Shown: positions 30,700-58,324, numbered from the stretch's first letter. The stretch is DNA of 64,000 nucleotides from an uncultured Dehalococcoidia bacterium (GCA_964492335.1 CAZBJX010000006.1:1963-65962); one strand, 5' to 3'. The notes: generated by a model from the sequence alone, not told the origin. Program-made: numbers and translations.

Positions 30700-30802
30700 G
30701 GTCAATCTCCCTTCAGCTTTCTCTGTCGCTTGCCCTTGGTAACCGTCAGCCGCCTTGCGGCGGCGGCCCATCCCGTATCCGGCATCCCCCGTCTCCGCCT
30801 CA

Positions 30803-32824: not shown

Positions 32825-32834
32825 GGCTTGCTCC

Positions 32835-34760: not shown

Positions 34761-34768
34761 GCAGGCCA

Positions 34769-36691
34769 ATGAACTATGATCGTCTGTTTGAGCCCGGCAA
34801 GATCGGGAAGATGGACCTGAAGAACCGGATAGTGATGCCCGCCATGGGCGTCTCCCTGTCAGACGCCAGGGGGTCGGCCACTGACAGGGAGATCGCCTAC
34901 TATGCGGCCAGGGCCAGGGGAGGGGCGGCCCTCATCACGCCGCACTACGCCTCGGTCAGCGCCGATTCCTCGCTGCCGTACACCATCGTCATCAGCGACG
35001 ACGGGCAGGTGAAGCACTGGAAGGCCCTGGCCGATGCCGTCCATGCGGCCGGGTCCAAGCTGTCGGTGCAGCTGATGCACATCGGCATGATCTACCTGTA
35101 CTCGGGGTTCGTTCCTGAAGGCATGGCCATCAAGGTGCCCAGCACCACCCTGTGGCTGAAGAGCACCTACAGCTACCACGTGCTCAACGAAAAGGAGATC
35201 GAGGGGTACATCGAGGACTTCGGCCAGGCCGCCCGGCGGGCCAGGGAGGCCGGGGCTGACGCCGTCGAGCTGCATGCCTGCCACGGCTGCCTGGTCAGCA
35301 CCTTCATGTCCCCCCTGACCAACAAGCGGACGGACCAGTGGGGTGGGAGCGTGGAGAACCGGGCCCGGTTCGCCCGCCGGATACTGGAGCGCATGAGGGA
35401 GGTGGTGGGGCCGGAGTTCCCCATCATCGTGCGCATGAATGCCAGTGATGATATCGAAGGCGGCGTCAGCATAGAGGAGGCCATGGAGCAGGCCTCCATC
35501 ATGGAGAAGGCCGGCGCGGATGCCATCAGCGTGTCCTCCGGCATGGAGTTCTGGACGCCCCAGGGGATCCCGGCCTACCCCTTCCCGGAGGGGGCCATGG
35601 TCCCGCTGGCGGAGAAGATCAAGCAGGCGGTCAAGGTCCCGGTCATCGCCGCGGGCAAGATCACCCCCGAGGTGGCCGTCAGGGTCCTGGAGGAAGGCCA
35701 GGCCGATTTCGTAGCCCTGGGGCGGCCCCTGCTGGCGGACTCCGACCTGCCGAACAAGATCCGCGAAGGGCGCCGGGAGGACGTGCGGAACTGTCTCTAC
35801 TGCAACAACTGCCTGCGGATGGAGACGGGCACTCCGTCCTGCACCGTCAACCCCTTCCTCTTCCGGGAGTCCCGGTATCCGCTGAAGCCGGCGGAGAAGG
35901 CGAAGAAGGTCATGGTTGTCGGGGGAGGCCTGGCCGGGATGGAGACGGCCGTGCTCCTGGCCGAGCGGGGCCACAAGGCGACCATCTACGAGATGACCGG
36001 CGAGCTGGGCGGCCAGTGGAACGTGGCCTGCGCCTCGCCGGGGAAGGGCAGCTACCGGCACCTCACCGACTACCTGAACAAGCAGATAGCCCGGCTGAAG
36101 ATACCGGTGGAGCTCCACCAGCAGGTCACCCGCGACACGGTGATCAAGGCGGCGCCGGACACCGTGGTCCTGGCCACCGGCGCGGTGCCCATCGGCCTGA
36201 GAGTGCCGGGGGCTGACAAGAAGCATGTCATCCAGGGGCATGACGTCCTGGCGGGCAAGGTCGGCGTCCAGGGCCGGTCCGTGGTGGTCGGTGGCCGCTT
36301 CATCGGCATGGAGGTGGCCATCAAGCTGGCCGAAGAGGGCCAGCCGGTCTCCATCATCACCCGCGGGGGGCTGGGGGAGAACGGAGTGAAGCTGGAGAAG
36401 TTCACCTTCCAGTCCATCGCCAACAGGCTTATCGAGCTGGGGGTGCCCCTCTATCTGAACGCCACCGTGGTGGAGATCAACGACAAGTCGGTGATCATAA
36501 TGATGAACGGCGAGATATACCCGGTGCCGGCCGACACGGTGATCTTCTCCGTGGGCATGCGGTCGGTGGCCGGCCTGGCCAGGGAGCTGGAGGGGACCGG
36601 CATCGAGTATCACCTGGTGGGGGACTGCGTCAAGCCCAGGGATGCCTGCGAGGTCCACACCCAGGCGGCCAAGATCGCCGCGCTGATCTAG
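34769..36691 (+). CDS. Two-domain NADH:flavin oxidoreductase (OYE-like + FAD/NAD-binding), paralog 3; start ATG 34769 (MNYDRLFEPGKIGKM)
   Basis: HACHGCLVSTFMSP, NCLYCNNCL Cys cluster, VVGGGLAGMETAV Rossmann. GGAGGAG SD is embedded in the last codons of the upstream Lrp gene. The track ORF start at 34562 is an over-extension overlapping the Lrp gene. Confidence 0.85.
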   Translation: MNYDRLFEPGKIGKMDLKNRIVMPAMGVSLSDARGSATDREIAYYAARARGGAALITPHYASVSADSSLPYTIVISDDGQVKHWKALADAVHAAGSKLSVQLMHIGMIYLYSGFVPEGMAIKVPSTTLWLKSTYSYHVLNEKEIEGYIEDFGQAARRAREAGADAVELHACHGCLVSTFMSPLTNKRTDQWGGSVENRARFARRILERMREVVGPEFPIIVRMNASDDIEGGVSIEEAMEQASIMEKAGADAISVSSGMEFWTPQGIPAYPFPEGAMVPLAEKIKQAVKVPVIAAGKITPEVAVRVLEEGQADFVALGRPLLADSDLPNKIREGRREDVRNCLYCNNCLRMETGTPSCTVNPFLFRESRYPLKPAEKAKKVMVVGGGLAGMETAVLLAERGHKATIYEMTGELGGQWNVACASPGKGSYRHLTDYLNKQIARLKIPVELHQQVTRDTVIKAAPDTVVLATGAVPIGLRVPGADKKHVIQGHDVLAGKVGVQGRSVVVGGRFIGMEVAIKLAEEGQPVSIITRGGLGENGVKLEKFTFQSIANRLIELGVPLYLNATVVEINDKSVIIMMNGEIYPVPADTVIFSVGMRSVAGLARELEGTGIEYHLVGDCVKPRDACEVHTQAAKIAALI

Positions 36692-38031: not shown

Positions 38032-38289
38032 TCATCGCCGGCGGTCTCGGCCGCTGTCAGGGCGGGGGGCGATGGTCACCTTGCCGTCCTCCATCTCCAG
38101 GACCATGTCCGCCCTGATAGCTATCTCCGGGGCGTGGGTGGCCACGATGACAGTCTTCCCGTCCCTGGTAAGGCTGTACAGGAGGTCCACGATGCGTCGG
38201 CTGGTCTTGGAGTCCAGGTTGCCGGTGGGCTCATCCCCCAGGACAATGGACGGGTCGTTGGCCAGGGCCCGGGCGATGGCCACCCGCTG
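38032..38289 (-). pseudogene. Truncated ABC-transporter ATP-binding protein remnant (MacB/LolD/FtsE type): retains only the end of the signature motif, Walker B and the H-loop; Walker A and Q-loop are missing
   Basis: Immediately after the permease TAG stop, the same frame continues [26 protein letters not shown]...IVATHAPE, i.e. the distal part of [14 protein letters not shown], Walker B and H-loop. No upstream N-terminal portion exists in any frame. Confidence 0.6.
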
Positions 38290-39615
38290 CTATTCATTGC
38301 GCAGTACCTCCGCGGGTCTGACTCGGGCGATGTACCAGGCGGGCAGCACGCTGGCTAGCACCGCCAGGAGGGCGGCCACGGCCAGGGCCCAGAGGAAGAT
38401 GGTCGGCGAGACCGTCACGTTGAGCCCGGCGACCCTCCCGCCCACCTCGGCGAACATGCCGCCCGGCCCGCCGGGGCCTCCTCCCGTGCCCGGTCCGGCG
38501 GCGCCCGTCGAGCTGCCGCCGGTCATCAGGTCAGCCACCTTCTGGGCCAGCGGATAGGTGATCAGGGCGCCGATGACGGCCCCCACCACGCTCACCACCA
38601 GCGTCTCCAGACTGAACTGCAGCCCGATACGCCAGTTTGAGGCCCCGATGGCCTTCATGATGCCGATCTCCTTCACCCTCTGCCGGATCATCAGGACCAC
38701 GGAGAAGAGGACCACCACCCCCGCCACGACGAAGGCCACTATCATGCCTATGTTGCTGGCGCTCTCGGTCGCGTCCACCGATCCGCCGATCTGCCGGTAC
38801 ATATCCTCGGCTGTGGTGACGTCGGCGGTCTCCTCATCGAAGACCTCCCGGATGCCCTGGACCACCGCTTCCACGTTGTCCACGTCGTCGGCCACGACGA
38901 TGACCGAGGTGACGCCGTCCAGATCGAATACCCGCTCCGCCGCCTGGATCGGCATGACAATGGTGTTGTTGGCGAAGACCGTGCCGCTGTCGTAGATGCC
39001 GACCACCACAAGCTCCGTGCCCTCCATATCCACCGTGGAGCCCACCGTCAGGCTGTTGGCCTCAGCCAGCGCCTGGCCGACCACCATTTCGTCCGCGTAG
39101 TCCGAGGTGAGGTAGCTGCCCTCCACCAGTTCGAACGTGCCGCCGCCCATCAGCGTCGGGCTGTCGGCAGCGGCACTGACTCCCATGACCTGGATGCCCA
39201 TGGTGAACCGGCCCGATGGAGGGGCAGGCATGCCGGAGGAGTCGCTTCCCTTGGGCCTCTGGCCGGGGGGCGTCCCTATGGTGCCCGCATCCACCCCTGA
39301 CTCCAGGCTGTCGCCGGTATACTGCGTCTGCACGGTGGCCTGCACCGAGGCCACGTGCTCAATGCCGCTCAACTGGTCCACGCTATCCGCATCCAGGGGT
39401 TCGCCGCCGCCCATGCCTCCGAAGGACCCCGCCGACCGTACGGTGATCTCGGTGCCGATCTGGCCCCCTATCTTCCCCAGTTCGCTCCGGGTGGCGGCGT
39501 GAACGGTGGCCATTGTCAGGGCCAGCCCGATACACGCGGCCAGCAGCACCACCATCAGGATGGTGCGCAACGGGCTGCGAACCAGGTTGCGCAGTGACCT
39601 CAACAGCAGACTCAT
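38290..39615 (-). CDS. FtsX-like ABC transporter permease (MacB-type, large periplasmic domain); start trimmed to MSLLLRSLRNLVRSPLRT
   Basis: N-terminal TM, ~250-aa extracytoplasmic domain, three C-terminal TM helices with the FtsX signature (MIRQRVKEIGIMKAIGASN). Confidence 0.8.
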   Translation of the reverse strand: MSLLLRSLRNLVRSPLRTILMVVLLAACIGLALTMATVHAATRSELGKIGGQIGTEITVRSAGSFGGMGGGEPLDADSVDQLSGIEHVASVQATVQTQYTGDSLESGVDAGTIGTPPGQRPKGSDSSGMPAPPSGRFTMGIQVMGVSAAADSPTLMGGGTFELVEGSYLTSDYADEMVVGQALAEANSLTVGSTVDMEGTELVVVGIYDSGTVFANNTIVMPIQAAERVFDLDGVTSVIVVADDVDNVEAVVQGIREVFDEETADVTTAEDMYRQIGGSVDATESASNIGMIVAFVVAGVVVLFSVVLMIRQRVKEIGIMKAIGASNWRIGLQFSLETLVVSVVGAVIGALITYPLAQKVADLMTGGSSTGAAGPGTGGGPGGPGGMFAEVGGRVAGLNVTVSPTIFLWALAVAALLAVLASVLPAWYIARVRPAEVLRNE

Positions 39616-42607: not shown

Positions 42608-43576
42608 TCACTTCCTGCCATCCCCGGCGGGCGGCTGCGCCCCGAAGCCCCAGTCGGCCCCGAGGTTGTCCTTGGTCACCTTCATCAGCACCATCACCTC
42701 ATGGCTGACCACCCCGGGCACCGTGCCGAGGTACTCCCTGACGAACCTGGACAGGTCCTCCCGGGTCTTGAGGAAGATGGTGAAGAGCAGATCGAAGGAC
42801 CCGGTGGTAATGACCACGTGGTGCGTCTCCGGCGATGCGGAGAGGGTGGCGGCGGCCTGGTCGATCATGCCCGGCCGCATGCTGAGGCCGATGTTGGCCC
42901 TGATGGTGTAGCCCAGGCGGACCGGGTCGGCCACGGCGATGACCTGCAGGACCTGGTCCTCGATCAGGCGCTCGATCCGCCGCCGGGCCGTGGCCTTGCT
43001 GCACCCGGCGGGGCCGGCCAGGCTGGTGTAGGCGCTGCGGGGGCTGGCGCGGAGCTGCCGCAGCAGGCGGTAGTCCAGCTCGTCGAGCCGCCGCCGGGGA
43101 GGCCTGCCCCCGCCGGCGGATATGCTCCTGTTGGCCAGCATGGAGAGAGAGAACTTGGCCACCTTGAGGCTGACCATGGTCTCGGCCCTGGTGATGTCCT
43201 TGATGGGCGCCAGGCTGGAGCTGACGAAATCCCACAGGTCCACCGTCTCCGGCAGGGACACCGAGGCGAAGATGTCGTAGCGCCCGGTGTGCATGGACAC
43301 GTGGTACACCTCGCGGATGTCCGCCAGCCGGCGGGCCACGGAATCGATCCGGCTGGGCGGCGCATTGATGGCCACCAGCAGCTGCCGGGTGTGGCCGATG
43401 GCCAGCGGGTCGACCAGCGTCAGGAAGCGGATGACCCTGTGCCGCTCCAGCCGCTCGAGCCGGTCGGCGATGGTGGACCAGCTCAGCCGCAGGTTGCCCG
43501 CCAGATCGGTGACGCTCTGCCGCCCGTCCCGCTCCAGCTCGGCGATGAGGCGCAGGTCAAGCTCGTCCAGTAGCAC
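42608..43576 (-). CDS. Tandem (duplicated) Lrp/AsnC-family transcriptional regulator, paralog 3
   Basis: Two AsnC-type halves (LDLRLIAELERDGRQSVTDLAGNLRLSWSTIADRLERL...; DYRLLRQLRASPRSAYTSLAGPAGCSKATARRRIERL...). Confidence 0.8.
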   Translation of the reverse strand: MLLDELDLRLIAELERDGRQSVTDLAGNLRLSWSTIADRLERLERHRVIRFLTLVDPLAIGHTRQLLVAINAPPSRIDSVARRLADIREVYHVSMHTGRYDIFASVSLPETVDLWDFVSSSLAPIKDITRAETMVSLKVAKFSLSMLANRSISAGGGRPPRRRLDELDYRLLRQLRASPRSAYTSLAGPAGCSKATARRRIERLIEDQVLQVIAVADPVRLGYTIRANIGLSMRPGMIDQAAATLSASPETHHVVITTGSFDLLFTIFLKTREDLSRFVREYLGTVPGVVSHEVMVLMKVTKDNLGADWGFGAQPPAGDGRK

Positions 43577-44295: not shown

Positions 44296-46737
44296 ATGGT
44301 CATGGAAGCCAGTGAAGCGAAGGCGGCCGGGGGCAGGCCCTGCCGGCCCAGCACTCCCCGGACCCGCAGGCTGAAGGAAGTCTACATGGGGCACAGGCCC
44401 GGCATCTGTGTCGAACGCAGCGTGCTGGTCACCGATTCCTACCGGAAGACGGAGGCCCTCCCGCCGGTGCTGCGGCAGGCCATGGCCTTCGACCGGGTGC
44501 TGTCGGAGATGCCCATCTGGGTCCAGGACGGCGAGCTTATCGCGGCCAACATCGCCTCGAGGCCCAGGGGGGCCTTTCTCTTCCCGGAATACGACGACAC
44601 CTGGCTGAAGAGGGAGCTGGACACCATCTCCACCAGGAAGGATGACCCCTGGCTTCTGAGCGATGAGGACAAGGCCCGGGTCAGGGGCTGCATGGACTAC
44701 TGGCGGGGCCGCAGCCTCTCCGCGGTGTGCGACGCGCTGACCGTGGACGAGGTGCGGCAGGCGGAGAGGAACTCCTTCATCGACATCCGCATGGGCAAGC
44801 AGGGCGGCATCGGGCACATCGTGCCCGATATCGAAACGGTCATAGAGCGGGGCCTGAACTCGTTGATAGAAGCGGCCGAGGACCATATCCGGCGCCTGGA
44901 CCTGGCCAACCCCGAGGGATTCGCCAGGCTGCCCTTCCTGCGGGCGGTGGTGATAGCGGACAGGGCGGTGATCAAGTGGGCCGGGCGGTTCGCCGCGCTG
45001 GCCAGGGAGAGGGCGGCGGCGGAGCCGGACCCCGGGAGGAAGCGGGAGCTCGAGCAGATGGCCGAGGCCTGCGAGCGGGTGCCGGCCCATCCGGCCCGCA
45101 GCTTCCACGAGGCCCTGCAGGCGGTGGCCCTCATCATGGCCTCGGTCCAGATAGAGACCAACGGGGTCTCCATCGGGACGGGACGGCTGGACCAGTACTG
45201 CTTCCCACATTATGAGAGGGACATCAGGGCGGGGGCGATCACCCGGGAGCAGGCGCTGGAGCTGCTGGAGTGCCTGTGGCTCAAGCTGGCCGAATCGAAC
45301 CGGGTGGTGAGCGAGGGATTCACCCACACCCAGAGCGGCTATCCCTTCTGGATCCAGGTGCCGATAGGGGGGCAGACCGTGGACGGCTACGATGCCACCA
45401 ACGATCTGTCCTACCTCCTGTTGGAGGTGTCCAGCAACATGCAGCTCCACGAGCCCACGGTGTCGGCCAGGATACACAAGAGGACGCCGGACGTCTTCCT
45501 CATGAAATGCTGCGAGGCCATCAGGGCCCATGGGGGAGGCAACCCCGCCCTGTTCAACGACGAGGTCATCATCCCCAGCCAGCTGGCCTGGGTCCCCGGA
45601 ATCACCAAGGAGGACGCCTATGACTACTCGGTGATCGGCTGCTCCGAGATCGCCTTCGCCGGCAAGGGGACCGAGGGCATCGCCTACCACGCCATGAGCC
45701 TGGGCCGGGTCCTGGAGCTGATGCTCCAGGGGAAGGACCCGGTGACCGGGGCGCCGCTGGCGTCAGGCCCGGGCGGCATGCTGCAGTGGCGGACCTTCGA
45801 CGACATGATGGAGGCCTTCACTGAGAAGGTGCGGGCCCTCTCCCGGGCCATGTTCCTGCAGCAACTGCCGCTGATCGAGGCCCACGTGGCCCACCGGCCC
45901 TGCCCGCTCCTCTCCTCCCTGACCAGGGACTGCATCAGCCGGGGCCGCAGCTACTATGACGGCGGGGCCCTGTACGGGAACCGCGCGGCCAACGCGTGCA
46001 TCGTCGGCCTGGCCACCCTGGCCAACTCGCTGGCGGCGGTCAGGAGGCTGGTCTTCGACGACCGGGCCATCACCATGGACCAGCTGAAGCATGCCCTGGA
46101 GACCAACTTCGAGGATACGGCCACCAGCCCCACGGGCCCGGCCATCCGCCAGATGTGCCTGCGCGCCCCGAAGTACGGCAACGACGACCCATACGTGGAC
46201 CGCCTGGCCAAGGACAGCCTGAACATCGTGGTGAGGGAGATGCGCAGGCACCAGACCCGGCCGGGCCAGGGCTACGGGGCCACCATCTCCCCGGTGACGG
46301 CCCACATGAGCTACGGGGCCATCTGCGGCGCCACGCCCGACGGGCGGAGGGCGGGGGAGCCCCTCAGCGACTCCTGCTCGCCGGCCCAGGGCACCGATGT
46401 CAACGGCCCGACGGCGGCCATCAAGTCGGTGGCCGGACTGGAGCACATGAACCTGGTGCAGGGGACGATCTTCAACATGAAGATGCACCCCGGGCCCCTG
46501 GAGACCCGGGCGGGAATGCGCAAGTGGGCGGACCTGGTCCGCACCTACTTCGACCTGGGGGGGTGGGAGGTCCAGTTCAACGTGGTCAGCTCAGACACCC
46601 TGAGGGAGGCGCAGCGGCGCCCCGAGGAGCACCGGGACCTGGTGGTCCGGGTGGTGGGCTACAGCGCCTTCTTCGTGGAGCTGGAGAAGGTGGTCCAGGA
46701 CGACATCATCGCCAGGACGGAGCACTGCGGGGCGTAG
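44296..46737 (+). CDS. Glycyl radical enzyme, PFL-like fold, eliminase class (Cys-x-Glu active loop), substrate unknown
   Basis: C-terminal glycine-radical motif RVVGYSAFF. Active-site loop VIGCSEIAF (Cys-x-Glu as in glycerol/propanediol dehydratase, CutC and HypD, not the Cys-Cys of PFL). N-terminal ICVERSVLVTDSYRKTE...IWVQDGELIAAN typical of GRE dehydratases/lyases. 813 aa. Confidence 0.9.
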   Translation: MVMEASEAKAAGGRPCRPSTPRTRRLKEVYMGHRPGICVERSVLVTDSYRKTEALPPVLRQAMAFDRVLSEMPIWVQDGELIAANIASRPRGAFLFPEYDDTWLKRELDTISTRKDDPWLLSDEDKARVRGCMDYWRGRSLSAVCDALTVDEVRQAERNSFIDIRMGKQGGIGHIVPDIETVIERGLNSLIEAAEDHIRRLDLANPEGFARLPFLRAVVIADRAVIKWAGRFAALARERAAAEPDPGRKRELEQMAEACERVPAHPARSFHEALQAVALIMASVQIETNGVSIGTGRLDQYCFPHYERDIRAGAITREQALELLECLWLKLAESNRVVSEGFTHTQSGYPFWIQVPIGGQTVDGYDATNDLSYLLLEVSSNMQLHEPTVSARIHKRTPDVFLMKCCEAIRAHGGGNPALFNDEVIIPSQLAWVPGITKEDAYDYSVIGCSEIAFAGKGTEGIAYHAMSLGRVLELMLQGKDPVTGAPLASGPGGMLQWRTFDDMMEAFTEKVRALSRAMFLQQLPLIEAHVAHRPCPLLSSLTRDCISRGRSYYDGGALYGNRAANACIVGLATLANSLAAVRRLVFDDRAITMDQLKHALETNFEDTATSPTGPAIRQMCLRAPKYGNDDPYVDRLAKDSLNIVVREMRRHQTRPGQGYGATISPVTAHMSYGAICGATPDGRRAGEPLSDSCSPAQGTDVNGPTAAIKSVAGLEHMNLVQGTIFNMKMHPGPLETRAGMRKWADLVRTYFDLGGWEVQFNVVSSDTLREAQRRPEEHRDLVVRVVGYSAFFVELEKVVQDDIIARTEHCGA

Positions 46738-46761
46738 CCGGTGGGCCACGGAGCGGGCACC

Positions 46762-47697
46762 ATGAGCGTGGCGATCTCCGGGCAGGTCTTCAACATCCAG
46801 CGCTACTCCATTCACGACGGCGCCGGGATCAGGACCCTGGTCTTCCTCAAGGGCTGCCCGCTGCGGTGCCTGTGGTGCTGCAACCCGGAGTCCCAGAAGG
46901 GCGGCCCGGAGCTGGGCTTCATCGCCTCCCGCTGCGTCGGGGACAGGGGGTGCGGGGCGCCCTGCGTCCCCGCCTGCCCCATCAGCGCCATCCGGCTGGG
47001 CCCGGAGGGCCGGCCGGAGATCGACCGGGCGGCCTGCGACGCCTGCGGCCGGTGCGCCGCGGCCTGCGGCCCAGAGGCGCTCAGGGTGGTCGGCCGGGAG
47101 ATGACCGTCGCCGGGGTGATGGCGGAGGTGGAGAAGGACCGCCCCTTCTACCGGCGGTCCGGCGGGGGTATGACGGTGGGGGGCGGCGAGCCTCTGGCGC
47201 AGCACCGCTTCGCCGCGGCGCTGCTGGAGGCGGCCCGGGACGCCTACCTGCACACGGCGCTGGAGACCTGCGGCCACGGCCCGTGGGCCCATCTTGAAGG
47301 GCTGCTCAGGCATGTCGACCTGCTGCAGTTCGATATCAAGCACATGGACGCCGCCAGGCACCGGGAGCTGACCGGGCAGTCCAACGACCTGGTGCTGGCC
47401 AACCTCAAGAGGGTGCCGGCCGTGAAGCCCCCCGGAGAGGTGATCATCAGGGTCCCGGTGGTCCCGGGGTGCAATGACTCGGCGGACAACGTGCGGGAGA
47501 CGGCGGCGCTGGTGGCCGGGCTGGGCTTCCGGCAGGTGGAGCTGGTGCCCTACCACCGGCTGGGGGCCCCCAAGTACGTCCAGTACGGCATCCCGGACCC
47601 GCTGCCGGACTGCCCTTCAGCCTCTGGGGGCCGCCTGGAGGAGCTCAGGAGGATTGTAGAAGAGGCCGGCCTGACGGAGACAGGCGGGACCATCTGA
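46762..47697 (+). CDS. Glycyl-radical enzyme activating protein (radical SAM, with additional 2x[4Fe-4S] ferredoxin-type inserts)
   Basis: CPLRCLWCCNPE (CxxxCxxC radical SAM). Ferredoxin Cys blocks CVGDRGCGAPCVPACP and CDACGRCAAACGP. Typical of activases for eliminase-class GREs. Confidence 0.9.
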   Translation: MSVAISGQVFNIQRYSIHDGAGIRTLVFLKGCPLRCLWCCNPESQKGGPELGFIASRCVGDRGCGAPCVPACPISAIRLGPEGRPEIDRAACDACGRCAAACGPEALRVVGREMTVAGVMAEVEKDRPFYRRSGGGMTVGGGEPLAQHRFAAALLEAARDAYLHTALETCGHGPWAHLEGLLRHVDLLQFDIKHMDAARHRELTGQSNDLVLANLKRVPAVKPPGEVIIRVPVVPGCNDSADNVRETAALVAGLGFRQVELVPYHRLGAPKYVQYGIPDPLPDCPSASGGRLEELRRIVEEAGLTETGGTI

Positions 47698-49452: not shown

Positions 49453-49575
49453 CGGCGGTGCGCCATCACCGGACGATGTCCCTTGAGGCGGACCACGCCC
49501 GGTGCGATGGTCTCGACGGCAACCCGGCATCCGCGGGGTGCCCCGGGCACTTCACGGGGGAAGGAGCGTGAAGCG

Positions 49576-50085
49576 ATGACAGGCAAGGGCAAGGAGGCCC
49601 CGGATTTCTCCGCTGCCGACAGCGAAGGCCGCAATGTGAGGCTCTCCGACTTCAAGGGGCGCAAGAACGTCGTGCTGGTGTTCAACCGGGGCTTCTCCTG
49701 ACCCCACTGCCGGAAGCACATGGCGCAGTTGCGTCATGACTACCAGGGGTTCGTGGACCGGCAGACGGAGGTCATCGCCATCGGCCCGGAGACCCCGGAG
49801 GCCTTCGCCCGCTGGTGGCGCAGAAACCGGATGCCCTTCATCGGCATCGGTGATCCCCGGCATGTCATCGCCGGGCTCTTCGGCCAGCAGGTGAAGCTGC
49901 TGAAGCTGGGGCGCATGCCGGCGCTGTTCGTGATCGATAGAGAGGGGCGGATGCGCAACGTGCATCGCGGGACGTCCATGGGGGACATCATGGCCAACGA
50001 GGAGGTACTGGCCCTGCTGGACGATATCAACCTGGAGCGGCCCACAGGGGGGGCCTCCCCCGGCGCTCCCGGGCAGAGTAGATGA
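49576..50085 (+). CDS. Selenocysteine-containing peroxiredoxin (PrxU-like, AhpC/TSA-redoxin fold); UGA at 49699-49701 decoded as Sec at the peroxidatic position
   Basis: Track ORFs 49483..49701 and 49720..50085 are in the same frame, separated only by TGA. Read-through gives ...RKNVVLVFNRGFS-U-PHCRKHMAQLRHDYQGF...IAIGPETPE...PALFVIDREGRM.... FS-U-P aligns with Prx FVCP/FTPxC. GGGGAAGGAG SD precedes ATG 49576. Confidence 0.65.
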
Positions 50086-50102
50086 GAAAGGAGAGCACCA
50101 CA

Positions 50103-50540
50103 ATGAAGGTCCCGGAGTACGTAACCAAGGCTGAAGTGAAGAAGGTATGCAAGGAGCTGGGCCTCAAGGACTGGTCGGCCCGCAGGGGCACCGACGTCAC
50201 CGAGAAGGAGGCGGCCATCATCCTCAAGGCTGTTGATACCGACGGCATGCCCGTACCGGTGGAGACCATGAGGAAGGGGCTGGAGGTGGAGCTGGAACAT
50301 GGCACCATGTACCCGTTTGCCAACGTGACCAACAACCACCCCATTCTCACCGCCAAGATCGTGCTGGCCCACCTCAAGGAGACCCTGGACTACTACGAGC
50401 GCCTGGAGGTCATGGAGATCGAGGGGGACCTGCTCCACGCGGTCAAGGCCAGGGACCTCAAGAAGATCGAGCAGAAGTACCGCAAGCTGGTGGCGGCCCA
50501 GGAGCTTCTCTGGCGGGAAGCGGGCAAGGAACTCGGGTAG
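50103..50540 (+). CDS. Hypothetical protein (146 aa), co-transcribed downstream of the selenoperoxiredoxin
   Basis: AAAGGAGAG SD 7 nt before ATG 50103. No recognisable catalytic motif. Charged, soluble. Confidence 0.5.
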   Translation: MKVPEYVTKAEVKKVCKELGLKDWSARRGTDVTEKEAAIILKAVDTDGMPVPVETMRKGLEVELEHGTMYPFANVTNNHPILTAKIVLAHLKETLDYYERLEVMEIEGDLLHAVKARDLKKIEQKYRKLVAAQELLWREAGKELG

Positions 50541-50589
50541 CCCTGGCCCCGGGCCGGGACCGGCCCCCTGCCCAGCGTGGTCCAGCCGG

Positions 50590-51816
50590 TCATTTCAAGT
50601 TCAGGCGGAAGAGAGGCTCGAACGAGCTGAACAGGTCCAGGTACTGCTCCAGGTAGCGGGACAGCAGGAAGTTCTGGCGGACCTTCTCCCTGGCGCGGCG
50701 CCCCATGGCGTCGCGCAGCCCCCTGTCCTTGACCAGTTGAACGATCCTCAGGGCCGCCTCTTCCACGGAAGAGACCAGGAAGCCGTTGACCTCGTCGTCG
50801 ATCTGGAAGCGGATGCCCCCCGCATTGCCCCCGATGACCGGGGTGCCCTTCCACATGGCTTCGGACACCGTCAGCCCGAACCCCTCGCGCAGCGATTTCT
50901 GCAGCACCACGGCTGCCTTCCGCTGGAGCGCGTTCACCAGGTAGCTGTCCTGGATGCTGTGTATTATGATCCGCTCCTCCCGGCTCTCCAGTAGGGAGTC
51001 GTAGACCTCTTCACCCTCCGGGTCGTCGGAGGCCACGTTTCCCACCAGGACCAGGGTGCAGTCGACCTCCCTGCGGGCGATCTTGAACGCCTCGATGACC
51101 CCCTTCGGGTCCTTCCAGGTGTCGAAGCGCGAGATCTGCACCACCAGCGGCAGGTCGGTGGGGATGCCGTAGTGGCGGAGCCGCTCGTCTATCTCCGCTT
51201 CGGTGAGGTCCCTGTTGATAATGGAGAAGGGGTCAATCGCCGGTACGAAGACCACCTGCGGAGGCCCGATTTCCTGAACATAGTCCGGGCTGCTCACGAT
51301 GACCGCGTCGTACTGCTCGATGAAGCGGACCAGGTACTCCCAGAGCTCCGGGTTGGGGTGGGTCAGGTCTATGTGGCAGCGCCAGACCCAGGGCACTCGC
51401 TTCCGGTAGTGCTCAATCAAGGGCAGGGGCTGGGGGTCGTGAACGATGATGATGTCATGGTTGTTCAGGTGGTTGCGGATGGAGTTCTCGAAGACCACCT
51501 CCTCGTACAGCTCCATCTTGCGCTGGCTGAGGTTGATCTCTCCGCCCTGGAGGGCATTGTGCATCTTCTTGGTCACCGTGAAGAAGTCCGGGGGGCCGTG
51601 GATGGCCCGCCACCCGACCCTTATCCCCAGGCTGTTCATCAGGAGGGTCATGGAAGACAGCAGCTGGGCCACGCCGCCGCCATAATAGGTGGAGTTGATG
51701 TTGGTGATGTGGAAGTCGTGCAGCGGCCTGGCCTTGCGGATGATGCGCTCCACGCTCTCGGCCCCGATCAGGGGCTCGTAGTCTTCGATGGTAGTGGTCC
51801 GGAAAGCTCTCGTCAT
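50590..51816 (-). CDS. treT: Trehalose synthase TreT (NDP-glucose:glucose glycosyltransferase, GT4); start trimmed to MTRAFRTTTIEDYEPLIG (ATG 51814-51816)
   Basis: Characteristic TreT N-terminus (...EDYEPLIGAESVERIIRKARPL...HITNINSTYYGGGVAQLLSSM...FFTVTKKMHNALQG). GT4 C-terminal EGFGLTVSEAMWKGTPVIGG. GGAAGGAG SD. Confidence 0.8.
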   Translation of the reverse strand: MTRAFRTTTIEDYEPLIGAESVERIIRKARPLHDFHITNINSTYYGGGVAQLLSSMTLLMNSLGIRVGWRAIHGPPDFFTVTKKMHNALQGGEINLSQRKMELYEEVVFENSIRNHLNNHDIIIVHDPQPLPLIEHYRKRVPWVWRCHIDLTHPNPELWEYLVRFIEQYDAVIVSSPDYVQEIGPPQVVFVPAIDPFSIINRDLTEAEIDERLRHYGIPTDLPLVVQISRFDTWKDPKGVIEAFKIARREVDCTLVLVGNVASDDPEGEEVYDSLLESREERIIIHSIQDSYLVNALQRKAAVVLQKSLREGFGLTVSEAMWKGTPVIGGNAGGIRFQIDDEVNGFLVSSVEEAALRIVQLVKDRGLRDAMGRRAREKVRQNFLLSRYLEQYLDLFSSFEPLFRLNLK

Positions 51817-51857
51817 CGTGCTTCGGTCTCCTTCCATTGGCCCATCCCCGCCCCGGC

Positions 51858-52859
51858 TCATCCGGGCAGGCCCCGCATGAAGCGCGCCGTTTCCTCGGGC
51901 AGCGCGCTGTTGATGAACATCCCGGAGCCGATCTCGAACCCGGCGACCTCGGTGGTCCGGGGCACTATCTTCACGTGCCACTGGTAGAAGTCGGCGCGCT
52001 CTTCTCCCACCGGGGCGCTGTCAATGACCAGGTTGAAATCGGGGTCGTCGAGGCCGCGGTACAGCTTCTGCAGGGTGGTCCGCAGCACCCGCGCCAGGTG
52101 CTCGATGTCCTCCGCCGTGGCCTGGCTGAAGCTGGCCTGGCCGGCCTTCGGCACTATCCAGGTCTCGAAGGGCCGGTGGGAGGCGAAGGGGTGGAAGACA
52201 ACGCATCCGGGGGTGTCCATCACCACCCTGGTCCCGGCTGCCAGCTCGCGCGCGGCCAGGTCGGCGCAAAGGCAACGGCCGTGGTCGTCGTAGTAGCTGA
52301 CGGCCACCGCGAGTTTGTTCCTGATATGCCCGGGGACGACGGCCGTGGCCACCAGCTGCGAGTGCGGATGCTCCAGCGAGGTGCCGGCCGCGGGGCCGTG
52401 GTTCTTGAAGATAATGATGGACTTGATGGCGGGGGCCCGGGTCAGGGCCTGATATCTCTGCTGCCATGCCTGCAGAACGGCCCTCACCTCCTCCTCTTCC
52501 ATCCCGGCCAGGTGCCTGTTGTGCACCGGCGTCTCCACGATCACCTCGTGAATCCCCGTGCCCGCCATGCTCAGGAAGAGCCCGCCGTCGATCTTCCGGG
52601 AGGTATCGCCGCCGGGGCTGACCGCAGGGTACTTGTTGGGGATGACCTTGACCTTCCAGGGGCCGCCCGCGGGTCCCGCAATGGTCAGGGATGCCGGGGG
52701 CGTCAGGCCCTCGTTGCCGGGGCAGAACGGGCACGAGCTGACGAAGGCGGGCTTCTCGGACCGCGGCGCCCTGCGGGCATGCTCTGAAGGCCGCTTTCCC
52801 CTTTCTGCGGCCATGATCACCCATTCTTTGGTTGTGGGGTCCTGTCTCATCTCCGACAT
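51858..52859 (-). CDS. galT: Galactose-1-phosphate uridylyltransferase (GalT, HIT superfamily)
   Basis: Zn motif SSCPFCPGNE and HIT-like EHPHSQL (HxHxQ). 333 aa. SD GAAGGA. Confidence 0.8.
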   Translation of the reverse strand: MSEMRQDPTTKEWVIMAAERGKRPSEHARRAPRSEKPAFVSSCPFCPGNEGLTPPASLTIAGPAGGPWKVKVIPNKYPAVSPGGDTSRKIDGGLFLSMAGTGIHEVIVETPVHNRHLAGMEEEEVRAVLQAWQQRYQALTRAPAIKSIIIFKNHGPAAGTSLEHPHSQLVATAVVPGHIRNKLAVAVSYYDDHGRCLCADLAARELAAGTRVVMDTPGCVVFHPFASHRPFETWIVPKAGQASFSQATAEDIEHLARVLRTTLQKLYRGLDDPDFNLVIDSAPVGEERADFYQWHVKIVPRTTEVAGFEIGSGMFINSALPEETARFMRGLPG

Positions 52860-53056
52860 GGTTCCTTCTCGACGAGCGCGGCAGGCTGCGGACTTCCGGG
52901 CTGGCGGTCATCGTTGCCTGCAAGCGGCCCGGAGGCGGGGAAGGGGGCCCAGTCCGGCGGCCCCGTCAGGACTCTGCTCGTATTTGTCACGAGTATTATA
53001 CCGTCGCCGGCGCCAGGTCGGCCAACTCGCTGCCCGTCCGGCGCCGGCAGGCCCGG

Positions 53057-53065
53057 CGTCCCTCT
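53057..53065 (+). promoter_or_regulatory. Candidate extended -10 promoter TGATATACT that would give a ~340-nt GC-rich leader before the thioesterase gene
   Basis: TGnTATACT motif in a 550-bp intergenic region. Downstream lie a possible leaderless 57-codon ORF (53078-53251) and a tandemly duplicated SD 11-mer CAAGGAGGGCA (x2) at 53377-53402. Confidence 0.3.
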
Positions 53066-53410
53066 GTGATATACTCTGAAGCATACGATGGGCGCTGCGC
53101 CCGAGGCTGACGCTGCGCTCCGACCGTGGCCGCTGCGGCGCACGGCCGGCATCTTCAGGAGGCAGGCCCCGGGGATGGAGGGCACACGATCGTACGACGC
53201 GGAGGATGACGGAGCCGCCGTCATGCTGGAACGCTCGGTGGGGGGATCGTGACCGGCGCGGGAGTGCACGGGATGTGCGGCTATCACGCGGCGGTGGCCG
53301 AGTTGCGCCGCCTGTCGGGAGCCCGGCGGAGAGAGCGGGAGGAGCGGGCCATCTGGGAGTCGCCAGGTTGACATAACTCCAAGGAGGGCAAAGACAAGGA
53401 GGGCAGGGAC

Positions 53411-53911
53411 ATGGAAGGGCGGGATGTAGCGCACTCCACGGTGACGCTGGCGCAGATGGTCTGGCCGGCCATGGCCGGCCGGGCTGGCTTTGCCCACGGG
53501 GGCGAGATCATGAAGCTGATGGACGGGGCCGCGGCCGTCGCCGCCGTCAAGCACTGCCACCGGGACTCGGTGACGGCCCGGGTGGATGGGATCAACTTCT
53601 ACCGGCCGGTGAGGCTGTACGACTTCGTCACCGTCACTGCCTGCCTCACCTTCGTGGGCCGATCGTCCATGGAGGTGCTGGTGGAGGTGTGGACGGAGGA
53701 CATCGCCAGGGAGACGAAGGAGCATGCGCTGACGGCCTATTTCATCATGGTGGCGGTGGATGAGACGGGCCGGCCGGCCGAGGTGCCGCCGCTGCTCGTG
53801 ACCACGGACAGCGAGAAGGCGCTGTGGGAGCAGGGGAAGCGCCGGTACCATGCCTGCAAGGCGGACATCCTCTCCGATGATGACAGCTACAGGGTGTGCC
53901 GCGAGGGATAA
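53411..53911 (+). CDS. Acyl-CoA thioesterase (hotdog fold, YciA/Acot-like)
   Basis: TLAQMVWPAMAGRAGFAHGGEIMKLMDGAAAVAA matches the YciA-type N-terminus; 166 aa. Confidence 0.75.
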   Translation: MEGRDVAHSTVTLAQMVWPAMAGRAGFAHGGEIMKLMDGAAAVAAVKHCHRDSVTARVDGINFYRPVRLYDFVTVTACLTFVGRSSMEVLVEVWTEDIARETKEHALTAYFIMVAVDETGRPAEVPPLLVTTDSEKALWEQGKRRYHACKADILSDDDSYRVCREG

Positions 53912-53982
53912 CCGGCAGCTGCGTGCAGCGGCCCTGTCAGCGGGCAGGTGGGGGCGGTCCTCTCAATGGTCAGCCCCTCAGG

Positions 53983-54534
53983 CTACACCACGGCCTCGGT
54001 CTGCATCCTGTGCTCGCCCCGCAGGAACCCCACGGTCAGCCGGTGGCCCGGCGCCAGCCCGGCCAGCACCCGGGCCAGGTCGTCCGCGGTGCTGATGGGG
54101 CGCAGGTTGACCTCGATGATGATATCACCCTGCTGCAGGCCGGCGCTCTCCGCCGGCGAGCCGGGCCTGACGCTGCCCACGAAGGCCCCGAAGAGTGGCA
54201 CGGCCCCCGCCTTCCTGGAGACCCTGCTGGCGTCGGCGATCTTGAGGCCGAAGGACACCCTCGGAGGGGCCTTGGCCCCGCCCGGCCCGGTCCCCGGCCC
54301 GCCCCGGGCGGCCAGCAGCTCTTCCAGCCGCTGCCGGTCGAACCCGATGACGTGCTCGTCGCCCACCGCGATCACGGGGACGCCCATCTGGTTGGTCCTG
54401 CGCACCATTTCCTCGGCGGCCACACGGTCCTTCGAGACGTCCTTCTCGATGTAGGGGATGCCCTTCTGCGAAAGGAACTCCTTCGCGTAGACGCAATACG
54501 GTCAAGTCGGGGTCGTGTAGAGCGTGATTTCCAT
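53983..54534 (-). CDS. Selenocysteine-containing glutaredoxin-like domain fused to a C-terminal PDZ domain; UGA at 54502-54504 decoded as Sec in a U-P-Y-C redox motif
   Basis: The minus strand from ATG 54532-54534 reads MEITLYTTPT-U-PYCVYAKEFLSQKGIPYIEKDVSKDRVAAEEMVRRTNQMGVPVIAVGDEHVIGFDRQRLEELL, a canonical glutaredoxin/NrdH layout with TGA replacing the first Cys of CPYC. It is in frame with track ORF 53983..54423 (PDZ-like GSPAESAGLQQGDIIIEVN). GAAGGGAGAAGG SD precedes the ATG. Confidence 0.6.
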
Positions 54535-54614: not shown

Positions 54615-57266
54615 CTACGGCCCGCGGCGGCCGGCTGCGGACTTGTTGTCGGCCTTCCCGGCCGGCTTCTCTTCAGCCTCCCGGGCCTTCTCAAACATGA
54701 TGCCGTCATCCCCGGCGTCGATGGTCACCCGGTCGCCGTCCTTGAACGTGCCGTCCAGCACCTTGAAGGCCAGCGGGTCCAGCATGCGCCGCTGGATGGT
54801 CCGCTTCAGGGGCCTGGCCCCGTAGTTCGGGTCGAAGCCTTCGCTCACCAGGAACTCCCGGGCGGCGTCGGTCAGCTCCACCGTCATGTGGCGCTCCTCC
54901 AGCCTCCGCTGCAGGCCCCTCATCTGGATGTCGACGATCTGCATGATCTGGTCGCGGCTAAGGGTGTGGAAGATGATGATCTCGTCCACCCGGTTGAGGA
55001 ACTCCGGCCGGAAGTGCGAGCGCAGCTCCTCGGTGACGCGCTGGCGGACCTCGTCCTCGCGGTCCGGGCCCAGGTCGGTGAACCAGTGACTGCCCAGGTT
55101 GCTGGTCATGATGACCACGGTGTTCTTGAAATCGACGGTGCGGCCGTGGCCGTCGGTCAGCCGGCCGTCCTCCAGTATCTGCAGCAGGGTATTGAAGACA
55201 TCCGCGTGGGCCTTCTCGATCTCGTCGAAGAGCACCACGGAGTACGGGCGCCGCCGCACGGCCTCCGTAAGCTGCCCCCCCTCGTCGTAGCCGATGTACC
55301 CCGGCGGAGCGCCGATGAGCCGGGACACGGTATGCTTCTCCATGTACTCAGACATGTCCAGCCTTATCATGGCCTGCTCGTCGTCGAACAGGAACTCCGC
55401 CAGCGCCCGGGCCAGCTCCGTCTTGCCCACGCCCGTGGGGCCCAGGAAGATGAAGCTCCCCAGGGGGCGGTTGGGGTCCTGGAGCCCCGCCCTGGCGCGC
55501 CGGATGGCATTGCTCACGGCGCTCAGGGCCTCGTCCTGCCCCACCACGCGCTGGTGAAGGCGGTCCTCCATCGTCAGCAGCTTGTGGACCTCGCCCTCCA
55601 CCAGCTTGCTGACGGGGATGCCGGTCCAGTGGCTCAAGACCTCGGCGATGTCCTCTTCGTCCACCTCTTCCTTGAGCATCCTCTCGCCGTGGCCGGTGTC
55701 GGCCAGGCCGTCCTCCATTTCCTTCAGGCTCTTGATCAGATCCACCAGGCTGCCGTACTTGAGGCGGGCCGCCCTCTCCAGGTCTCCGGACTGCTCGGCC
55801 TGCGCCACTTCCACCTTGGCCTGCTCGATCTGCTCCTTGAGCCTCTGCATGCCGCCGATGGACTCCTTCTCCTGCTGCCACTGCGCCCGCAGGCGGTTGC
55901 CCCGCTCCTTCAGGTCGGCCAGCTCCTTGTCGATGTTGGCCAGCCTCTCCTTCGACGTGCTGTCGGTCTCCCTCATGAGCGCCTGTCGCTCGATCTCCAG
56001 CTGCATGGTGCGCCGCTGCACTTCGTCGAGATTGGCGGGCACGCTGTCGATCTCCATGCGCAGCCGGCTGGCCGCCTCGTCCACCAGGTCGATGGCCTTG
56101 TCCGGCAGGAAACGGTCGCTGATGTAGCGGTGGGACAGCACGGCGGCGGCCACCATGGCGGCGTCCTTGATGCGCACGCCGTGGTGCACCTCGTAGCGCT
56201 CCTTCAGGCCGCGCAGGATGCTGATGGTGTCCTCCACCGAGGGCTCCACCACCATCACCGGCTGGAAACGGCGCTCCAGGGCGGCATCCTTCTCGATGTG
56301 CTTGCGGTACTCGTTGAGAGTGGTGGCCCCCACGCAGTGCAGCTCCCCTCGGGCCAGCATGGGCTTAAGCATGTTGGAGGCGTCCATGGCGCCCTCGGCG
56401 GCGCCGGCGCCGATCACCGTGTGCAGCTCGTCGATGAAGAGGATGGTCCGGCCCTCGGACTCGGTGATCTCGCGGAGCACCGCCTTGAGCCTCTCCTCGA
56501 ACTCCCCCCGGTACTTGGTGCCGGCCACCATGGAGCCCAGGTCCATGGCCACCAGGCGCTTGTCCTTCAGCCCTTCGGGCACGTCCCCCTTCACGATGCG
56601 CTGGGCCAGCCCCTCGACGATGGCCGTCTTGCCCACGCCCGGCTCGCCGATGAGGACCGGGTTGTTCTTGGTGCGCCGCGACAGGACCTGGATCACGCGG
56701 CGGATCTCCTTGTCGCGCCCGATCACCGGGTCGAGCTTGCCGCGGCGGGCGATCTCCGTCAGGTCCCGGCCGTATTTCTCCAGGGCCTGGTACTTCCCCT
56801 CGGGGTTGAGGTCCGTCACCCGCTGGCCCCCGCGGATGGTAGTCAGCGCCTGGTAGATGCTGTCCCTGGTGACGCCGTGGCTGTCGAGCAGCCGGGTGGC
56901 CGGGCCCTTTTCGCCGTCGGCGACAATGGCCGTCAGCAGGTGCTCGGTGCTGACATAGTCGTCCCTGAGCCGCTCGGCTTCCTGCCGGGCGTTGTCCAGG
57001 GCCCTCTTCAAACGGGGGGACATGACCAGCTGCACCGGGCCGTATGCCTTCGGCTGCCGGTCCAGCTCGGCCTTCATCTGCTGCCTGACCTGCCGCAGGT
57101 CCACACCCAGCTTCAGCAGCAACTGCGGGACCACGCCGTCGGCCTGCTCCAGCAGGGCCGTCAGCAGGTGCTCCACGTCCAGCTGACTGTGATTGGCGTT
57201 CTCGGCGATCTGCTGGGCCGCCAGGATGGCCTCCTGGGCCTTCTCAGTGAACTTGTTCAGGTCCAT
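54615..57266 (-). CDS. clpB: ATP-dependent chaperone ClpB
   Basis: N-domain [18 protein letters not shown]. Two AAA+ modules ([15 protein letters not shown]; [15 protein letters not shown]). Long middle coiled-coil. 883 aa. Confidence 0.95.
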
Positions 57267-57310
57267 GCCTCCTCACCTCTCATTCCGGGGGTTGTCGGCG
57301 CGCCGCCGCA

Positions 57311-58324
57311 TCATCCGCGCAGCCGGGCCAGCTCCTCGAAGAGCTTGCGCTCCTTGTCCGAGAGCTTGTCCGGAAGCACGACCGATACCTCCGCGAGGAG
57401 GTCGCCGTGCTGTGCCGGCTCGCCCAGCCGCGGCATGCCCTTGCCCTTGAGCCGGAACACCCGCCCGTTCTGCGTCTCGGCCGGGATCTTCAGCGCCACC
57501 TTGCCGTTCAGGTTGGGGACGGTCACCTCACCTCCCAGCACCGCCGTCGTCAGGGGCACTTTGAGCCTGGAGTGGAGGTCGTCCCCCTTGCGCTCGAAGG
57601 TGCTGTGCGGCAGGATGTGCACCACCAGGTAGAGGTCGCCGGCCGGGCCGCCTCCCATCCCCGGCCCTCCCTGCCCCGCCAGCCGCACCTTCGACCCCTC
57701 CTGCACGCCGGCCGGGATCCTGGCCTCTATGCGGCGGGACTTCCCGCTGCCGCCCTCCATCTGGAACATGCGGGTGGTCCCGCTGTATGCCTCCTCCAGG
57801 GTGATCTCTATGGGCTGCTCGAAGTCCTGGCCCCGCCGCGCCCGCCCGGCGGTGCGGTAGCGCCCGCCGGCGCCCGGGCCCGCACCGGGTTGGTCGCCGA
57901 AGAAGGTGTGGAAGAAGCTGGAGAAGGGGCTCTCACCGCCGCCGCCGAAGAGGTCCTGCAGGTCCTCCTCGGTCATGGTCTGGTAGTGGACGCCGCCGCC
58001 GCCGCGGCTGCCTGGCTGGCCGGCGCCGGCGAAACCGTAGCGGCTCCAGTCGAACGGCTGCCCGCCGGCCCCGCCGCCGGCCTTCTGCCACTGCTCGTAC
58101 TCCTTCCAGTGGGCCCCGAGCTCGTCGTACTTCTTGCGCTTCTCCTGGTCTCCGAGGACCTCGTAGGCTTCGTTGATCTCCTTGAACCTGGCCTCGGCTT
58201 CCTTGTTGCCGGGGTTCACGTCCGGATGGTGCTGGCGGGCGAGCTTGCGGTAGGCCGCCTTGATTTCCTTGGCGGTGGCCTTCTTGTCCACGCCCATTAT
58301 CTTGTAGTAGTCCTTGTAGTCCAT
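57311..58324 (-). CDS. J-domain co-chaperone (DnaJ/CbpA-like, no zinc-finger domain; Gly-rich linker)
   Basis: DYYKIMGVDKKATAKEIKAAYRKLARQHHPD with the HPD motif. Gly-rich region. C-terminal substrate-binding domains. No CxxCxGxG repeats. Confidence 0.85.
   Translation of the reverse strand: MDYKDYYKIMGVDKKATAKEIKAAYRKLARQHHPDVNPGNKEAEARFKEINEAYEVLGDQEKRKKYDELGAHWKEYEQWQKAGGGAGGQPFDWSRYGFAGAGQPGSRGGGGVHYQTMTEEDLQDLFGGGGESPFSSFFHTFFGDQPGAGPGAGGRYRTAGRARRGQDFEQPIEITLEEAYSGTTRMFQMEGGSGKSRRIEARIPAGVQEGSKVRLAGQGGPGMGGGPAGDLYLVVHILPHSTFERKGDDLHSRLKVPLTTAVLGGEVTVPNLNGKVALKIPAETQNGRVFRLKGKGMPRLGEPAQHGDLLAEVSVVLPDKLSDKERKLFEELARLRG

Follow-up and report, generated by a model that had tools for sequence, protein, structure and literature searches.

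Does an in-frame TGA codon in a bacterial gene end the protein, or is it read as an amino acid? The question arises twice in a 64,000-nucleotide (64-kb) stretch of DNA from an uncultured Dehalococcoidia bacterium (GCA_964492335.1, CAZBJX010000006.1:1963-65962), here called the window and numbered from its first letter. One gene, at 49576..50085 on the plus strand, encodes a peroxiredoxin-like (Prx-like) putative thiol:disulfide oxidoreductase of the AhpC/TSA fold; its 169 codons include a TGA at codon 42 (49699..49701, +) in the active site GFS-U-PHC, where U stands for selenocysteine (Sec). The second, at 53983..54534 on the minus strand, encodes a fusion of a YruB-type glutaredoxin (Grx) with a PDZ domain; its 183 codons include a TGA at codon 11 (54502..54504, -), in the active site TPT-U-PYC, just before helix alpha-1 of the Grx fold. 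The comparisons below make it very probable that both TGAs are Sec codons decoded by the standard bacterial route. Both genes are known kinds of bacterial selenoprotein, and they reveal no new mechanism.

How clear is the coding signal around the two codons? The Prx-like open reading frame (ORF) starts with an ATG at 49576, with an AAGGAG Shine-Dalgarno sequence at 49561-49566, 9 nt ahead of it, and is translated around its single in-frame TGA as VVLVFNRGFS-U-PHCRKHMAQLR. The Grx-PDZ ORF starts with an ATG at 54534 and has the N-terminus MEITLYTTPT-U-PYCVYAKEFL, again with a single in-frame TGA. Both TGAs lie in frame with open, coding-like sequence on either side. Because the window has a G+C content of 66.6%, true reading frames have about 0.9 G+C at third codon positions (GC3) and about 0.45 at second positions (GC2). 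The 64 kb were scanned in two ways: one scan covered the 195 TGAs flanked on either side by 40 or more open codons, the other TGAs next to ORFs of coding-like composition. Composition that is GC3-rich and GC2-poor in the same frame on both sides was seen at these two TGAs only. Elsewhere TGA is the commonest stop codon of the window, terminating 26 of 48 genes, and the DNA beyond the TGA stops of the other genes is not coding-like; thus, TGA has not been reassigned in this organism. The codon strings given by an earlier, sequence-only reading of this DNA are exact: TGA CCC CAC TGC at 49699-49710 (+) and TGA CCG TAT TGC at 54504-54493 (-).

Is the TGA of the Prx-like gene conserved between species? 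With U replaced by C, the protein matches PF00578 (AhpC/TSA) with 91.1 bits against a cut-off of 26 (E 6.7e-26). Most of what a protein search returned are truncated gene calls, proteins of 104-126 amino acids whose first residues, M-A-Q-L-R, come straight after the TGA. Full-length homologues in the database carry CPYC or CPFC, and Cys is found at the Sec column in P0002, P0003, P0005, P0030, P0047, and P0049. The C-terminal fragment of the window's own gene was recovered on 10 or more contigs from independent assemblies, each with the gene split into products of 41 and 121 amino acids, and strain variants show only third-position single-nucleotide polymorphisms, on both sides of a retained TGA. 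An orthologue set was built by scanning one genome per species and taking the best 80 of 314 relatives. The Sec column is a stop codon in all 80 loci, and it is TGA in the window and in 79/79 loci whose codon was read, the remaining locus being L082. These best 80 relatives span Dehalococcoidia, Anaerolineae, Caldilineales, Syntrophales, Smithella, and Spirochaetota, and include the complete genome of Syntrophus buswellii; the closest orthologues are from metagenome-assembled genomes (MAGs) of Dehalococcoidia/Chloroflexota. Amino acids are conserved both upstream and downstream of the TGA while synonymous codons vary freely, codons +8 to +11 excepted.

Those exceptional codons lie over a hairpin of the type known as a bacterial selenocysteine insertion sequence (SECIS; bSECIS for the bacterial form). 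At 49719..49738 (+) the transcript can form CAUGGCGC-AGUU-GCGUCAUG, a stem of 8 bp with a folding energy of -11.0 kcal/mol, which starts 20 nt from the U of the UGA and has its apical loop AGUU at 49727-49730, a UGA-to-loop distance of 25 nt. Over the hairpin, GCG encodes Ala in 77/80 sequences, CAG encodes Gln in 77/77, TTG encodes Leu in 78/78, and CGC or CGT encodes Arg in 76/77. For GCG, CAG, and TTG the entropy among synonymous codons is close to zero, for CGY it is low, and this is so only here; other Leu columns of the alignment use four to six codons. The core GGCGC-AGUU-GCGYC is 97.3% paired in the 80 orthologues, compared with 18-66% when partner columns are slid, and the sequence AUGGCGCAGUUGCGY is near-invariant in this set, that is, across at least three phyla. 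The three Cys-form loci examined use CTG or TTA for the Leu that is TTG in the Sec forms. The sequence-only reading had placed a hairpin 5-6 nt downstream of the TGA. In the Prx-like gene the minimum free energy (MFE) fold of the single sequence does have an outer helix that starts 5 nt past the U, and this helix is only 52.9% paired in the 80 orthologues; the conserved hairpins start instead 20 nt (Prx-like) and 18 nt (Grx-PDZ) from the U, and the nearer one was rejected as the recoding element.

Several departures from the common pattern were seen among the Prx-like relatives. In L085, from a Dehalococcoidales MAG, a TAG stands directly before the Sec TGA (TTT TAG TGA CCC, L085:1611-1616); it is the only disrupted copy among the 80, and the TAG probably arose from CAG by nonsense mutation or through faulty assembly. 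A Logan contig of 36% G+C (SRR32456844; L181:301-771) carries a true Trp codon, TGG, where Sec would be (GFV-W-PYC), with the SECIS core ATGGCGCAGTTGCGT intact; this may be a recent TGA-to-TGG rescue in a lineage that is losing Sec, or an error. In a second Logan contig (SRR10489830; L182:301-780) the TGA is followed by P-Y-T, so that Thr replaces the resolving Cys and the motif is UxxT. The database protein of this locus, P0013, has W in place of the TGA, the gene having been called with a code in which TGA is Trp. The idea that W at the Sec site always reflects translation of TGA with code 4 holds for P0013 and is false for P0009, where the TGG is real. A DUF5661 gene follows the Prx-like gene of the window after 17 nt (50103-50540, +). 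Since this pair is kept in only seven of the 80 loci, those of the closest relatives, any functional link between the two genes would be shallow.

What is the product of the second gene? With U replaced by C, it matches PF00462 (E 3.1e-19) followed by the PDZ family PF17820 (E 1.1e-13), and it passes TIGR02196 (YruB glutaredoxin-like) with 94 bits against a cut-off of 88.55. The Grx domain comprises residues 1-78 (54301-54534, -), residues 79-91 form a linker that is disordered in an AlphaFold model, and an HtrA-type PDZ domain occupies residues 97-182 (53989-54246, -). In the model, which has a mean confidence score (pLDDT) of 83, U11 of the motif U11-P-Y-C14 stands directly before the helix 13-24. 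The PDZ domain is most similar to those of DegQ, DegP, HtrA, and DegS, which bind the C-termini of unfolded proteins.

The closest Grx-PDZ proteins in the database (65-98% identity) all start downstream of the TGA, and more distant relatives of 173 amino acids carry CGYC or CPYC. Two orthologous loci, L011 and L012, share the gene order lepA, fba, pfk, dnaJ, (clpB), grx-PDZ and keep the TGA in MEV(V/T)VYSTPT-TGA-PYCVYAKEFLSQKG; the codon is also present in the independent assemblies L013, L094, and L095. Does translation begin upstream of it? Among five close sequences, differences in the ten codons ahead of the TGA are distributed 18:6:40 by codon position, the Shine-Dalgarno sequence and ATG are conserved, and upstream of these the sequences are no longer similar. 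The start of translation is therefore ten codons ahead of the TGA. Counted over the window, both orthologues, and all scorable metagenome loci, the family comprises 29 sequences with TGA (UPYC, UGYC, or UPWC) and 33 with TGC or TGT.

This near-even division into Sec and Cys forms allows the hairpin to be compared between them. In the window it lies at 54468..54486 (-) as GCGAAGG-AGUUC-CCUUUCGC, with a stem of 7 bp and -7.6 kcal/mol; its apical loop AGUUC is at 54479-54475, and the UGA-to-loop distance is 22 nt. The 19 UPYC-type Sec forms share GNGAAR(G)-AGUUY-CUUUCNC and are 97.7% paired. Within them, pair 20-36 is formed in every sequence, as C-G in 8, U-A in 10, and U-G in 1; its covariation consists of an exchange of Ala and Val that is accompanied by a synonymous change in a Ser codon. 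In 500 shuffles of these 19 sequences the pairing and covariation values were not reached once. The nine UGYC-type Sec forms have a hairpin of their own, GCCAAG-AGUUUU-CUUGGC, 98.1% paired. In 32 Cys forms the same hairpin columns are 49.6% and 51.0% paired, no better than slid controls. Because pairing is about 98% in Sec forms and about 50% in Cys forms, the hairpin travels with the TGA and not with the protein sequence. The full bSECIS model is passed by 15/29 Sec forms of Grx-PDZ and by 2/33 Cys forms, no Cys form doing so at the same position.

How well do the two hairpins fit what is known of bacterial SECIS elements? The published consensus has an apical loop of 3-9 nt with a G within its first two nucleotides, usually with G or U after it, a stem of 4-16 bp, a UGA-to-loop distance of 16-37 nt, and an MFE of -7.5 kcal/mol or lower (PMC13188914). 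Both hairpins lie within these constraints, the Grx-PDZ one as a borderline case. The sequence-only reading had proposed to compare them for a shared SECIS consensus; AGUU occurs in both loops, and both fit the bSECIS model. They resemble the Escherichia coli fdhF-type element in being stem-loops within an ORF, with a loop of 4-5 nt and an early G followed by U; this likeness is one of structural constraints only, and no Rfam model covers the window hairpins. Fit to the model is by itself weak evidence, since it is passed by 12.6% of all TGA triplets in the window and by 6.7% when G[G/U] is required. Stems of 6 bp or more that carry an (A)GUU loop at a suitable distance are rarer, following 9 of 1732 window TGA triplets, and among those nine only the two candidates combine an AGUU loop with coding-like composition on both sides. 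The evidence from the hairpins is comparative. As two bSECIS examples with matched Cys-form controls, they could help to train SECIS and selenoprotein predictors for Dehalococcoidia.

A number of results weigh against Sec decoding. Folding of the single sequences is no better than that of shuffles (z-scores of -1.15 for Prx-like and -0.31 for Grx-PDZ), and Rfam searches, of the whole window at gathering thresholds and permissively around both TGAs, gave chance matches only. The Grx-PDZ hairpin barely meets the limit of -7.5 kcal/mol, which 14/29 Sec forms miss with a simple contiguous stem. For the Prx-like hairpin, only three Cys-form loci were compared, and the closest of them, L174, could still form a 4-bp hairpin by reading of its sequence. 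There are no compensatory double changes in the 80 Prx-like sequences, because the element hardly varies. On the same alignment RNAalifold prefers a weak stem between columns 10-14 and 23-27 (49708-49712 with 49721-49725), which excludes the AGUU hairpin. This alternative stem, UGCCG/UGGCG, is 100% paired in the 80 orthologues; it was regarded as secondary, as it consists mostly of bases fixed by the amino acids and leaves the frozen CAG, TTG, and CGY codons unexplained. As for the machinery, no recognisable selA, selB, or selD is found in the 64 kb or in the 8.4 kb past the right end, no tRNA-Sec in the window (which holds no tRNA gene at all), in that flank, or in 60 related loci, and a scan of 1.28 Mb of related loci restricted to SelB and SelD motifs found nothing.

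Does the organism use Sec at all? Since no Sec machinery appeared in the window, in its right flank, or in the motif scan, we infer Sec synthesis from the genes that would need it. The right flank, L179, is identical to the window over the window's last 7322 nt and extends 8.4 kb further. It holds a third candidate, about 5.8 kb past window position 64000 and in the same genome: a gene at L179:13072-13869 (+) that matches the arsenite methyltransferase model NF008823 with 301 bits against a cut-off of 263 and has an in-frame TGA (13153-13155) in its N-terminal Cys-rich motif, GGQDCSCS-U-SGES. A 9-bp hairpin with the loop GGC lies 23 nt downstream of this TGA (-11.6 kcal/mol). Arsenite methyltransferase is a listed bacterial selenoprotein family (PMC13188914), and Dehalococcoidia MAGs with 46-49 selenoproteins are on record (PMC13326102). 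The proposal of the sequence-only reading that this is a Sec-utilising organism gains support from this third gene, which has an in-frame TGA and belongs to a known selenoprotein family, and Sec use appears well supported, if indirectly. Roughly 70 kb of DNA from this uncultured Chloroflexota/Dehalococcoidia-like organism would then encode three selenoproteins or more, and the organism would count among the users of Sec.

Could the TGAs be nonsense mutations, in pseudogenes or in genes of which only truncated or downstream-initiated fragments are expressed? Gene callers split both genes, and the extra TAG beside the TGA of L085 shows that decay does occur in the Prx-like family. Against this stand the stop at an identical Prx-like column in all 80 species (TGA in the 79 that were read), the TGA in many Grx-PDZ lineages, and purifying selection in the same frame on both sides of the TGA. 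In the Grx-PDZ gene a start codon and Shine-Dalgarno sequence are conserved ten codons before the TGA, and truncated products would be without the entire active site. Loss of function of this kind is highly improbable, and the sequence-only reading was right to argue against random nonsense mutations: the TGA is conserved in orthologues, the homologues include Cys forms, and the hairpins track the TGA. Creation of the TGAs by sequencing or assembly error can be given practically no weight. Nothing specific speaks for it, although a related long-read assembly, L011, is full of frameshifts; the Prx-like TGA recurs in 10 independently assembled contigs from different samples, strain variants included, and in 80 other species, and that of Grx-PDZ in the independent assemblies L011, L012, L013, L094, and L095.

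A different objection is that the UGA is decoded, but not as Sec: a near-cognate or suppressor tRNA might insert Cys, Trp, or Gly, or TGA might have been reassigned. The failure to see Sec machinery in the available DNA would fit, as would the genuine TGG of L181 at the Sec position with the hairpin core intact, and some database entries, such as P0013, translate TGA as W. Reassignment is ruled out by TGA being the commonest stop codon (26/48 window genes), with sequence after those stops that is not coding-like. Moreover, the homologues have Cys, the classic partner of Sec, at the Sec column; the hairpins match the bSECIS model expected for SelB and vanish in Cys forms; and both families are known selenoproteins. 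Decoding as another amino acid is very unlikely, though slightly less so than nonsense mutation, and decoding as Sec remains by far the preferred explanation of both TGAs.

How would Sec be inserted at these codons? SelB carrying Sec-tRNA(Sec) would bind a stem-loop that lies within the coding sequence about 20 nt downstream of the UGA and whose small apical loop contains G-U (AGUU in both genes), and Sec would be inserted at the UGA in place of termination. Dependence on SelB and actual incorporation of selenium are what this scheme predicts for both genes. In the Prx-like protein, Sec would sit where the exposed nucleophilic Cys of a thioredoxin-fold CxxC is found, and a selenylsulfide between Sec and the downstream Cys would form during disulfide oxidoreduction. 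In Grx-PDZ, the PDZ domain would most likely hold the redox domain on client proteins by way of their exposed C-termini or peptides. Disulfides and client proteins are the presumed substrates.

Is the Prx-like protein a peroxidase? Its nearest solved relatives are a Bcp-type peroxiredoxin (3drn) and ResA (3c71). Its Sec aligns with the Thr of TxxC in Bcp and with the first, nucleophilic Cys of WCPHC in ResA, and in these alignments the downstream Cys is at the position of the peroxidatic Cys. The classical peroxiredoxin site PxxxTxxC is not present: N-R-G-F-S-U-P-H-C has Arg for Pro and Sec for Thr. The protein is cytoplasmic, without a signal peptide. Because neither the Pro nor the Thr of a peroxiredoxin site is present and Sec is at the position of the nucleophilic Cys, it is best read as a selenol/thiol-disulfide oxidoreductase, which is its most likely role, and not as a classical TxxC peroxidase. 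Both gene families are listed among bacterial selenoprotein families (PMC1794560; PMC13188914). A Prx-like thiol:disulfide oxidoreductase family of selenoproteins (PF00578, UxxC/UxxU) is known from Syntrophus, Geobacter, and others, and was first reported in Syntrophus (Zhang et al. 2006, PMC1794560). The window protein shares with it the AhpC/TSA fold, the UxxC motif, Cys-form homologues, and occurrence in Syntrophus; the likeness is one of fold and motif, and the published reference protein of the family is WP_010940744.1. The window clade differs in being dominated by Dehalococcoidia and Anaerolineae and in having its own near-invariant SECIS core. The model for a SelL-related redox protein, NF040769, was reached with only 72.7 bits against a cut-off of 120, over residues 6-96 in the N-terminal half.

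Which known families are closest to Grx-PDZ? Selenoprotein glutaredoxins (PF00462, UxxC) include that of Clostridium oremlandii (Kim et al. 2011, as cited in PMC13188914). The window protein shares with these and with TIGR02196 the Grx fold, U-P-Y-C before helix alpha-1, and the interchange of Sec and Cys; it differs by the C-terminal HtrA-type PDZ domain after a disordered linker. The fusion is absent from the family table of PMC13188914. A second combination of a thioredoxin-fold redox domain with PDZ, Trx7/PDZ (NF041199), also has known Sec forms, but its motif is CxxU and not UxxC and its length about 390 amino acids; the window protein scores 30.4 bits against a cut-off of 300, in the PDZ part only. 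NCBI labels the relatives of Grx-PDZ 'Uxx-star family glutaredoxin-like (seleno)protein'. The score against the Uxx-star model NF041212 is 60.2 bits, below the cut-off of 66, and the window Sec is residue 11 of 183, at the N-terminus. The name presumably refers to a Sec three residues from the C-terminus. P0138, P0148, and P0237 are Cys-form Grx-PDZ proteins under this name, with an N-terminal redox motif and about 170 residues after it, and for such relatives the name seems to have been taken over from the Grx domain match alone.

The neighbours of Grx-PDZ offer a hint of its role. Either dnaJ or clpB, or both, lies directly upstream on the same strand in 13/82 related loci, in Sec and Cys forms alike and down to about 46% identity (window 54615-58324, -; L011, L012, L095, L099, L100, L102, L106, L107, L119, L126, L132, and L166). 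Where 2.5 kb or more of upstream sequence is available, the proportion is 7/32. That the gene so often comes next after dnaJ/clpB points to protein quality control, in which a client-tethered reductase is a reasonable hypothesis. It is tempting to speculate, with more doubt than confidence, that the Sec form is a client-tethered selenol disulfide reductase, the redox arm of cytoplasmic DnaJ/ClpB repair in Dehalococcoidia, in which PDZ would capture the C-termini of damaged proteins and UPYC would reduce aberrant disulfides. An equally tentative and separate idea is that the SECIS core of the Prx-like gene partly explains the conservation of M-A-Q-L-R; if so, it would be an RNA element that shapes protein sequence.

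Are the two TGA sites related in any way beyond their decoding? The sequence-only reading had stressed that both share the codon context TGA-CCN-NNN-TGC. The codons are indeed present in both genes, as the U-P-x-C active-site motif and not as a nucleotide signal. Among the Prx-like orthologues all four codons are evenly used for the Pro after Sec (1.95 bits) while the amino acid is fixed, and the UGYC subclade of Grx-PDZ has TGA GGN, with Gly instead of Pro. The context is constrained at the protein level, and the codon comparisons indicate no nucleotide-level signal adjoining the UGA. Nor are the redox folds unrelated, as had been supposed: AhpC/TSA and glutaredoxin are different families, yet both belong to the thioredoxin-fold superfamily. 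The spacing of 4.8 kb between the genes, put at within 5 kb, is real and coincidental: among the relatives of either gene, none has the other gene in its flanks (0/80 and 0/82 loci).

For annotation, the consequence is that two genes are corrected which standard gene callers split or truncate. The active site is lost in every database entry seen for the Sec clades of both.

The window holds some further features. An FtsX-type permease gene (39810-38290) is followed directly after its stop, in the same frame, by the C-terminal 83 residues of an ABC ATPase (38032-38292, -). The piece begins in the signature/Walker B region (QRVAIARAL), lacks Walker A, and looks like a deletion remnant, which would leave the transporter without a complete ATPase nearby. 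By reading of translations only, there are three paralogous double-domain Lrp/AsnC-like regulators, at 24047-25060, 33774-34760, and 42608-43576, and the first two adjoin large flavin/Fe-S oxidoreductase genes that are old-yellow-enzyme-like (28579-32899 and 34562-36691). A glycyl-radical enzyme and its activase, recognised in the same way, are encoded at 44296-47697.

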